NCBI GenBank assembly: GCA_902462295.1
Contig: CABQAZ010000002.1
Coordinates: forward strand, 66,151-130,150
Direction: 5' to 3'
Length of the DNA: 64,000 nucleotides
From: an uncultured Clostridium sp.
GTDB lineage: Bacteria; Bacillota; Clostridia; TANB77; CAG-508
Made by a program: the position numbers. The stretch's first letter is position 1, and each line of letters opens with the position of its first letter. Shown one piece after another: positions 39,501-42,500 of the stretch.

Positions 39501-42500
39501 ATAATGAAGCTGTCGCAGAGTGTCTTAATTTATCTATTTCATCATTTATTGATGCATCTTTTTCAATATATGTATCTGATTGTGCAATATAACTTTCTGG
39601 TTGATAATAATCATAATATGAAACAAAATATTCAACATGGTTTTCTGGAAAAAATTCTTTGAATTCGGAATATAGTTGTCCTGCTAGTGTTTTATTATGT
39701 GCTAATACTAATGTTGGCTTCTGTGTTTTTTCTATTATGTTTGCCATTGTAAATGTTTTTCCAGAACCTGTTACTCCTAGAAGTGTCTGATATTTTTCGC
39801 CTTTTTCTATTCCTTTTACTAAATAATCTATTGCCTTAGGTTGGTCGCCTGTTGGCTTGTATTCTGAGTGTAATTTAAACATATTTTCCTCCTTCTTAAT
39901 TGTAATTAAAAATTTGTCCCACTATATAATTAACTACTTTTTATAAAAGTGAAAATCATAGTAATCTTGTCCATAGCCTAAAGTTTTTTTCGAGTATATC
40001 CTAATTATAATGCTTCTACCAATTATTATATCAACTTACAAACTTAATTACTCGTAATTTTTTTCACAAACTCTATATAATTTTTTTCTAAATAAATTCA
40101 AACCTTAAATATCTTTTCCGGATTATACATTGGTCTTTTTAAGGTTTCATTTTTTAACTCATTTAAAACTTAAAACTTTTCTTGCATATTATATTATATT
40201 TTTTCAATAACTTCAACTGTTTTCTCACTATTCTGCAAACGTGTAGGATACAAGACAATAGTTTTGATTAATATTATCAACAAAAACATAAAATATAAAC
40301 TTTACATTTTATGTTAATTGTGATATAATATATATGCAGTCACAAAAAATATTCAAAAAAGGAGAATGCTTATGTTCGACATCAAAGGAAAAGCAACAGC
40401 AAATGTTTTCGTGAAAGGGTTTGCACAGGAAGTAGATTATGACAAACTGGTCAGCCCATCAGATTGCCAGGGCGAGTTCGTAGCGATTATCACCGACCTC
40501 GTTACATCAGAACCACTTATGGTAACATCAGCGGTTCTGACAGAGGCTGGAAAGTGGAGCCTCAAATGTACTGATGGTACCGCTTTAGAACTCGAAGCAG
40601 AACCAAAAAAACCTCGTGAAATGGTATATGCAATACCTGTAACCAATTTCAGAGAGTCTGTTTGGGGTAACAGCTACGATGTAGTTTTCCCAGAGGATTA
40701 CGACATCGTCAGCAGAGCAATTTCTGAAGGCAGTAAACAGTCCTATAGACTCATCGGCTATATTGACCGTCAAAAGGTTGTAACAAGCCGTTTTGTGAAA
40801 TTTTGGACTGATGGAACAGGAAAACACCACGGCATAACCAAGAGTGGATCTCATTATGTATTTTAATACATAACACTGCTTTTGCCGTCTCCCCCCCTAT
40901 TGATGTAAATGCATCATTGGGGGGTTTTCTATATTGACTTGTTATGTCAATTATGCTATAATTTTCAATGTTCCTAATAAATCATTAGGATTAATTTAAT
41001 AATCTCCTTATGGAGTTAACATATATAACAAGTAATCAACAATAAATATTTAAGGAGGTATTTGAATGAGTGAAAAAAACAAAGATTTCTATGTGTGGAC
41101 AATTACAAAATATATCAACTCCACTCATAAATGGTGGGGAATTGATATAATGTCCATATACGACAACATCAAAAAAGATTTTCCTAATGCTACAGAAGCA
41201 ATTCAAAAAATGTATCACAAGTTAAGAAAACCCAATTTCTACAAATCTAAACTTTTAGTTTTTGAGCAAGCTGAATACATTTATGAAGCTATTGCAAATT
41301 TAATTCCGCAGTACAATGAACTTCAATATACTATAACAACTAAAGAACAATCACAAAAATATGAAGAATTGAATATGCACTCTTGGAATCGGTTTATAGA
41401 AACTAGCCGTATTGACTTGCTTATGGCTATTTTATTGTTCACAGAAGAATTTATTTTAGAACCTGTACAAAGTGACAATGTAAATCTTACTGACAATCAT
41501 CTTACTGTAATTGGAAACTTTGTTACTCTCGAAGTATCAAGAAAAGAAGATAAAACACATATCTCTATTCTAGTTAGAGATGTTATACTTCTTAAATATG
41601 CGATACTCAATTAACTTAAAAGACAATATAGAATATTATTTTCTATATTGCCTTTTTTTAAAATATTTCTTCTATAATTTTCTCTGCAATATCTTCTTTA
41701 CCAGAAGCAATAGTATAATCATTAAATCCTTTAACAATAAACGCTTTATGGCTACCTTTTCTGATATTTTCTAAATCATTAGCAACTACCAAATTACAAT
41801 TATTTTTATTTTTCAAATTAATTGCAGTATCAATTAATTCCTTTTCACTAACATTATCAAGTAATTTAAATCCCACTAAATATGTACTTGGACTGATATC
41901 TTTTATCATAGATATTATTTTAGGTGTTTTCTTTAATTTAATAATTAAATTCTCTTTATTAGATGAAATTTTATTATCATTCAAATTTTCTTTATTAGAG
42001 CAAATTAAATCAATAACACTTTTATTAGGATTACTGCTTATATTTAAAGCCAGATTTTCTGCAGTTGTAACATAATCAACAGAATAATCTGATACAGCCA
42101 TAGAATGTATAAAATAATCTATTTTATTACTTGTTAATAATCCTTTTACTGATATCTCTAAATCTTTAGTATCTGTAATTTCAATAATTTGAATTTTAGG
42201 ATGTATTGGTTTGAATGAACTTTTTGAGCAAATATAATAAATTTTTTCTATTTGTTCTTCATTTGATTGTATTAATTTATTTGCTATTGTACATCCTAAT
42301 TTTCCAGAACTACTATTTGTTATTTTTCTTACATTATCTATTTTTTCACTGGTTCCTCCTGCTGTTATAATTACTTTTTTCATTTTATCTTTCCTCCTTT
42401 ATCAACTTTTTAATATAATCAATTATTTCTTTATTTTGTGGAAGTTTTCCTTTAGCTTCATCTCCACAAGCAAGATGTCCTACAGTTGGTTCAATAATTT

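Follow-up and report, generated by a model that had tools for sequence, protein, structure and literature searches.

A GC-rich, moron-like single-gene cassette beside uvrB in an AT-rich gut Clostridium and the patchy family to which it belongs

Phage morons are independent transcription units that have been added to phage genomes (PMC3594210). Small genes that stand apart from their surroundings also invite comparison with the cargo of islands linked to tRNA genes, with Tn4451-like mobilizable transposons (large serine recombinase, TnpV and Mob_Pre) and with integron cassettes. In this study, we undertook a computational analysis of a gene of 164 codons, here called X164, that lies beside uvrB in a stretch of 64,000 nucleotides (the window) of contig CABQAZ010000002.1 from an uncultured Clostridium sp. 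(assembly GCA_902462295.1), and that an earlier note on this DNA had singled out as GC-rich and foreign. X164 resembles a moron in being a single open reading frame (ORF) that has a promoter and a terminator to itself and is predicted to be expressed independently of its neighbors, and in having a composition unlike that of the surrounding genes (GC content 0.43 vs 0.27); moreover, one of its relatives, L001, is found in a tRNA-linked island together with a phage-type Bro-N gene. It differs from a moron in lying outside any phage or prophage, with uvrB, coaB, coaC and a further small gene, Y182, as its neighbors and no match in PHROGs, IMG/VR or INPHARED, in having regulatory flanks that were kept along with the ORF in the close relatives examined, and in belonging to a family that is GC-richer than every host in which it was seen, not merely different. 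X164 is moron-like cargo outside phages and encodes an undescribed protein family. Our favored reading, which we hold to be moderately probable, is that X164 forms a single-gene cassette, expressed autonomously and circulating horizontally, which has become an established resident at this locus.

X164 is the strongest compositional outlier within the 64 kb. The GC content of its ORF is 0.430 against 0.274 for the window overall, which agrees with the contrast of ~44% and ~27% reported in the earlier note, and sliding GC in 500-bp windows (mean 0.274, standard deviation 0.032) rose above 0.37 only at 40201–40551. The GC content at third codon positions (GC3) is 0.383, compared to 0.132 ± 0.046 among 50 window ORFs, a distance of ~5.5 standard deviations. 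Codons that the host all but avoids (CTC 0.00, GGC 0.02, ATC 0.04, ACC 0.02, AGC 0.05) supply 33–50% of their codon families in X164. The GC signal is mainly synonymous, since the ratio of GARP to FYMINK amino acids (0.77), while high, is inside the window range, and amino-acid make-up was rejected as its main driver. Codon bias of highly expressed host genes was likewise rejected as the cause of the raised GC3, which is only 0.10 in rplU of the window and 0.11–0.15 in the genes for enolase and pyruvate:ferredoxin oxidoreductase (POR) in related contigs; the proportion of G-ending Lys, Glu and Gln codons is 0.36 in X164 vs 0.02–0.12 in these three genes. X164 is therefore still an outlier when set against genes of this kind, a comparison that the earlier note had named as one that might undo its proposal. 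A lesser claim, that this was the only place in the window with long antisense ORFs, was mistaken, as antisense ORFs of 105 and 111 residues are carried by uvrB and by a gene for a DUF975 membrane protein. The antisense ORFs of X164 are not conserved among its homologs, and an overlapping antisense gene was rejected on these grounds.

The expression signals around X164 (Table 1), namely its promoter, ribosome-binding site (RBS) and terminator, are predictions from sequence. The promoter, TTTACA-17-TGaTATAAT, has 11 of the 12 consensus positions as well as the TG extension, and is among only four in the 64 kb that combine at least five of six −35 positions with a perfect −10 and TG. Transcription is predicted to start near 40336, the 5′ untranslated region shows no structure on folding (z score +0.4), and the RBS AGGAGA is 6 nt ahead of the ATG at 40372; an in-frame ATG at 40366 is not taken as the start because it abuts the RBS. 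A simple terminator scan missed the terminator, whose stem, CCCCCCC(U)AUUGAUG-UAAA-UGCAUCA(U)UGGGGGG, was scored together with its UUUU by hairpin folding at −22.7 kcal/mol (z score −4.6). The extended −10 promoter, canonical RBS and strong G/C-stem terminator described in the earlier note were thus all recovered, and with them its self-contained transcription unit, as a prediction. Its placement of that unit between uvrB and coaC/coaB is correct for X164 and incomplete for the interval, which also holds Y182 as a second independent gene. Its candidate operator, the inverted repeat TTGAT-7-ATCAA upstream of the promoter, was rejected: the arms are only 5 bp, the window has 983 repeats of this kind (one per 65 nt), 10 of them in this intergenic region, and the repeat, judged a chance feature, is absent upstream of the homologs. 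A search for structured RNA gave no Rfam match across 39800–41700. We also considered an integron cassette, as the terminator hairpin is conserved, and set it aside; X164 has its own promoter and neither an integrase nor an attC array was seen. Taken together, the sequence supports X164 being a genuine compositional alien and a predicted autonomous transcription unit.

The regulatory ends of the cassette are conserved across its homologs. The promoter block TTGACAttTTATGTTAATnnTGnTATAAT is nearly identical in close homologs, which have 37–59% protein identity and saturated synonymous divergence, and it is kept in six cassettes (that of the window and five homologs of 37–52% identity) at six unrelated loci, in an alignment that includes one additional strain copy. 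The inner stem of the terminator, (A)ATGATG...CATC, and its C-rich and G-rich outer arms are common to the window, L001, L005, L009, L106 and L108. A spacer motif, TTATGTNAATTRTGNTATAAT, searched with up to two mismatches, is confined within the window to the promoters of X164 and Y182 (0.05 occurrences expected) and, throughout 1.25 Mb of fetched loci, is found almost only ahead of homologs of X164 or Y182. Most close relatives also have a 5′-proximal hairpin, AGTCAC...GTGAC (z score −3.0 in L001 and −2.5 in L005), of which X164 in the window keeps only the left arm (AGTCAC), the right arm having been lost. In the most distant relatives, L091 and L094 (25% identity), the promoter is near consensus and leads into a conserved stretch of ~110 nt that may be a regulatory leader of an undescribed kind. 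This leader (L091 5390–5572; L094 180–363) can form two hairpins whose loops are mutually complementary (AAAUCCAA / UUGGAUU) and contains a CCUUC segment that could pair with the RBS; it has no match in Rfam.

The family to which X164 belongs is small. A single-sequence search of 5.8 billion proteins returned six clusters, all of them metagenomic, and a profile search of 1.84 billion representatives returned ~43 family members, almost all of which are single-domain proteins of 147–196 residues; weak profile matches to two large repeat/PAS proteins (P0044 and P0045) were judged spurious. DNA was recovered for nine distinct contexts, that is, for 9 of the ~43 representatives. Besides the window locus, these are an island downstream of tRNA-Thr (L001), a locus with Imm33 and G5/3D genes (L005), a locus syntenic with it that has Imm33 upstream and a separate homolog, P0006 (L009), and loci with TelA/XpaC (L006), RNase G and HD (L091), Amidase_3 (L094), tRNA-Leu and addA (L106) and a DnaJ-like gene (L108). 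In all nine the family gene is monocistronic, shares no neighbor or conserved partner gene with the others, is flanked by Clostridia sequence of 23–29% GC and is an outlier in GC3. The values for its homologs are 0.29, 0.43, 0.38, 0.42, 0.38, 0.64 and 0.50, and the GC excess extends to members of only 25% identity. These results support a rare and patchy family whose locus differs between all the lineages looked at. The search of phage and plasmid collections that the earlier note had proposed found no family member in IMG/VR, INPHARED or PLSDB, nor was there any among BFVD structures, and a phage or plasmid origin of X164 was rejected accordingly.

Marks of transfer were found in several relatives. 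The L106 homolog lies 115 nt after a tRNA-Leu gene (7668–7751), and an exact 19-nt copy of the 3′ end of that tRNA at 7847–7865 is an attachment site (att)-like scar. Within the same locus, 7284–7866, upstream of the homolog, is another small GC-richer region (0.41) with a putative short ORF, read by eye, that is preceded by a promoter resembling that of the cassettes (TTGACTTTATGTTAAT...TATAAT) and followed by the tRNA-Leu gene. The L001 homolog lies in an island that begins at tRNA-Thr(CGU) and whose Bro-N protein matches phrog_8036 (E 3e-79). L005 and L009 have flanks that are 99.2% identical (14 mismatches in 1759 nt) around genes that differ at 70 of 477 positions with a synonymous divergence (dS) of 0.30, which indicates that the gene body was replaced by recombination and not merely selected in place. 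Hypermutation by a diversity-generating retroelement was rejected for this pair, as the differences span nt 12–426 of the 477 and are distributed as 24/18/28 over the codon positions, with the same dS of 0.30; no reverse transcriptase is encoded among the neighbors of either gene. L005 (1161) and L006 (4522) are 99.7% identical over the cassette and lose homology ~25 nt upstream of the −35, beyond which one contig has Imm33 and the other TelA/XpaC. The edge of the cassette coincides here with a structural-variation junction. No integrase or recombinase was seen beside any of the X164 homologs examined.

At the window locus itself, the history appears to be longer. The order uvrB-X164-Y182-coaB is unchanged in independent assemblies of this species, and between strains X164 differs by 0.8–1.2%, which is equal to the divergence of uvrB and of the intergenic DNA; a search of metagenome contigs with a narrower family alignment found only one contig of this species. 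One strain contig, L095, has a uvrB that is 99.2% identical to that of the window and a DUF975 gene (37283–37852) that differs at 56 of 570 positions (9.8%), which looks like a localized allelic replacement. Among the 80 closest species representatives, none of the uvrB loci gave a match to X164, coaB or coaC. When the six closest related species (L011–L016), one of which has a 95% identical UvrB, were compared at the DNA level, homology ended at the uvrB start codon (~39883–39901), and because synteny ends there, these species do not offer a true empty site for comparison. Synteny breaks repeatedly in the region upstream of uvrB. Relatives that are more diverged provide a further indication of age: in the L001 lineage, which shares 71% identity with the window in its peptidase-U32 and dockerin proteins, an X164 homolog of 52% identity lies ~3 kb from a cadherin-like/dockerin/peptidase-U32 block orthologous to that of the window, in the opposite orientation and with other genes between, at a dS of >2.5. 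The earlier note had called X164 the clearest signature of recent horizontal acquisition in the window. The description of X164 as foreign, mobile cargo is supported by the marks of transfer in its relatives, but that of its acquisition as recent is not, given the strains that carry it at this locus with a divergence like that of uvrB. The same note had held that the same gene at the same locus and with the same GC content in related strains across a whole clade would speak against it; within the species we found the gene at the same locus, while across L011–L016 the synteny that would be needed to follow it further ends at the uvrB start. The GC excess does not provide a time stamp for this event, as it is family-wide and includes members of 25% identity.

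The 164-residue product was described in the earlier note as having no assignable motif, and our searches bore this out with no matches in Pfam, NCBIfam, PHROGs or PADLOC. For the anti-defence, toxin/immunity and effector roles that the earlier note had raised as candidates, no hit came from PADLOC, PHROGs or the phage and plasmid collections. No consistent curated family emerged when the 43 family members were profiled, and the family profile found nothing among PDB sequences better than E 0.14. The ratio of non-synonymous to synonymous divergence (dN/dS) between homologs is 0.14–0.44, indicating purifying selection, and an AlphaFold model built on a 43-sequence alignment reached a mean predicted local distance difference test score (pLDDT) of 92 and a predicted template modeling score (pTM) of 0.75. 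We regard X164 as a real, folded protein because of this dN/dS below 1 and the pLDDT of 92. The model is all-beta apart from one helix, with thirteen strands in two lobes. The isoelectric points of the family are near neutral (median 5.7), and no signal-peptide-like segment was apparent at the N-terminus by eye, no predictor having been run. The model has a weak fold likeness to the N-lobe beta-barrel of the RFTS domains of DNMT1 and DIM-2 (PDB 3epz and 9baz), at 11–12% identity, over half of X164 and with no Pfam match. The RFTS, a regulatory domain of eukaryotes, has a helical lobe and a zinc site that X164 lacks, and membership of the DNMT1 RFTS family was rejected since neither the full bilobed architecture nor sequence or profile similarity was found. 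The likeness is one of barrel type and not evidence of homology, and X164 appears to be a cytoplasmic, non-enzymatic-looking tandem small-beta-barrel protein. It is probably a non-enzymatic binding protein that has no close solved relative.

Table 1. Coordinates of X164, Y182 and associated sequence features in the window (promoters, RBS and terminator predicted).
Feature	Position	Strand	Description
Inverted repeat TTGATtaatattATCAA	40264–40280		TTGAT-7-ATCAA; chance feature, outside the unit
X164 promoter, SigA/sigma-70 type	40301–40329	+	−35 TTTACA, 17-nt spacer TTTTATGTTAATTGTGA with TG extension, −10 TATAAT
X164 5′ untranslated region	40336–40371	+	Short, unstructured; RBS AGGAGA at 40360–40365
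X164 coding sequence	40372–40866	+	164 residues; two-lobed all-beta model with one helix; unannotated family
X164 intrinsic terminator	40893–40928	+	13-bp G/C-capped hairpin at 40893–40924, then UUUU
Y182 promoter	40934–40962	+	TTGACT-17-TGcTATAAT; same spacer motif as X164 promoter
Y182 coding sequence	41066–41614	+	182 residues; orphan; GC3 0.246
Convergent hairpin	~41622–41652		Common to Y182 and coaB

Y182, which follows X164, has no similarity to it, although the two genes co-occur on the same contigs of this species. Its family comprises >130 unannotated clusters, nearly all of 179–188 residues, and its leader of ~100 nt is ~90% conserved with that of a 69%-identical homolog (L102). Homologs of Y182 occur after tRNA-Thr, after tmRNA, tRNA-Gly and Abi_2, and inside a serine-recombinase/Mob_Pre element by ThsB-TIR and CBASS genes, the last of these being the point of likeness to the Tn4451-like transposons. 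The genes of this element (L100) have a GC3 of 0.11–0.16, whereas its Y182-homolog cassette has one of 0.34; since the element is host-like, the excess belongs to the cassettes and not to the vehicle. Both families provide examples of tRNA-linked island cargo, as the X164 homologs of L106 and L001 and the Y182 homologs of L100, L102 and L104 are downstream of tRNA-Leu, tRNA-Thr, tRNA-Gly or tmRNA, and the backbone genes of such islands are AT-rich like the host, unlike the cassettes. This likeness holds for the relatives and not for the window copy. Further small ORFs with raised GC3 were observed in AT-rich surroundings at L100 10333–10527 (0.34), inside the mobile element with host-like backbone GC3, and at L001 2720–3109 (0.32), which suggests that small GC-rich stand-alone ORFs recur in these genomes.

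According to our favored reading, the X164 cassette would comprise one ORF, read from a strong SigA promoter with an extended −10 by way of a short leader and a strong RBS and closed by an intrinsic terminator, and its family would circulate horizontally among extremely AT-rich Clostridia of the gut and rumen. Entry into genomes would be by way of integrative elements at tRNA genes, and the cassettes would also spread by homologous replacement of the gene body between their conserved ends. The window locus would not represent a fresh insertion, with X164 and the unrelated Y182 cassette instead sitting at the synteny breakpoint by uvrB. X164 would be made alone, without a conserved partner and possibly at a high level, and we infer that it binds a protein or nucleic-acid target. 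Its most plausible role, by analogy to the products of phage morons, may be in conflict with phages or mobile elements. Several findings weigh against this reading. No vehicle for X164 itself was found, IMG/VR, INPHARED and PLSDB being without a family member, and among the 9 of ~43 representatives with DNA none came from a donor lineage to whose composition the family is native. The surroundings of the window copy are also bare of the expected marks: neither an att repeat nor a phage gene is near it, the interval 39883–41657 has no integrase or recombinase, and there is no tRNA within the 64-kb window and no tRNA remnant near the cassette. Furthermore, the pattern in L100 fits a cause intrinsic to the gene, such as selection or biased conversion, no less well than it fits a GC-rich donor.

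One alternative is a recent entry from a GC-richer donor, with the GC excess representing donor composition that has not been ameliorated. A GC3 of 0.38 in a host of 0.13, the absence of X164 beside uvrB in the 80 closest species representatives and a choice of codons (CAG, ATC, GGC, CTC, AGC and ACC) typical of mid-GC Firmicutes would all be expected of such an entry, and the family range of 0.29–0.64 in GC3 is readable as an amelioration series. All nine sampled members, however, are outliers in AT-rich hosts and none is in a mid-GC host, several strains have X164 at the same position with a divergence equal to that of its flanks, and the 52% homolog by the orthologous cadherin-like/dockerin/peptidase-U32 block has a dS of >2.5. 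We consider a recent entry to be unlikely.

A second alternative is that X164 is a long-term resident whose GC-rich state is maintained, either by selection on a long-lived or strongly translated mRNA or by GC-biased gene conversion that frequent recombination of the cassette would drive. This would explain why the GC3 excess persists despite saturated synonymous divergence and why it is confined to the cassette, even in an AT-rich mobile element in the Y182 family. The near-consensus promoter, the 5′ hairpin of the relatives and the strong RBS and terminator are traits of a high-output, stable mRNA, although the window copy does not have the complete hairpin and GC3 is not raised in those host genes for which the highest expression would be expected. 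Recombination within the gene is documented by L005 and L009. The effects reported for biased conversion in bacteria are far below the 0.25–0.5 in GC3 seen here. The patchy distribution and the tRNA scars would still need horizontal transfer, and we find this alternative quite unlikely. The lasting excess itself may stem either from repeated transfer out of a GC-richer donor pool or from maintained GC. An artifact, be it a chimeric assembly, a contaminating fragment or a GC-rich non-coding element misread as an ORF, is highly improbable, for even though family contigs are often short and some break inside it or close by (L095 stops at window position 40615, and L096 measures 1052 bp), both junctions recur in independent assemblies from different runs, Rfam has no match, and the ORF is conserved in length with a dN/dS of 0.14–0.44 and a confident fold while the antisense ORFs are not conserved.

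Returning to the reading of X164 as a circulating cassette, a bolder extension of it can be proposed, albeit as a speculation that we think quite unlikely. X164, perhaps with Y182 and other small GC-rich ORFs that have the same type of promoter, might represent an undescribed class of minimal promoter-ORF-terminator “plug-and-play” cassettes in extremely AT-rich Clostridia. The conserved ends of such cassettes would drive high constitutive expression and double as homology arms by which cassettes are exchanged between genomes, their GC-rich bodies would be maintained by selection or biased conversion, and their products, here with a new two-barrel fold, would be stand-alone conflict proteins for phage exclusion or anti-defence. 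At the other extreme, X164 may be one more hypothetical island protein.

The practical importance of X164 is limited pending a function or phenotype. It nonetheless defines an unannotated family whose fold is predicted with confidence and is without a close relative among solved structures, and the combination of a family-wide, cassette-specific GC excess with a conserved promoter and terminator that travel along with it is unusual. If our reading is correct, the atypical composition of X164 would mark a family that remains foreign in composition to each of the hosts examined, without dating its transfer, and this would call for caution in GC-based identification of recent horizontal gene transfer in very AT-rich genomes. 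With one protein of 164 residues and one promoter, X164 would also provide a small experimental target for the study of the accessory functions that are exchanged by uncultured low-GC gut Clostridia.

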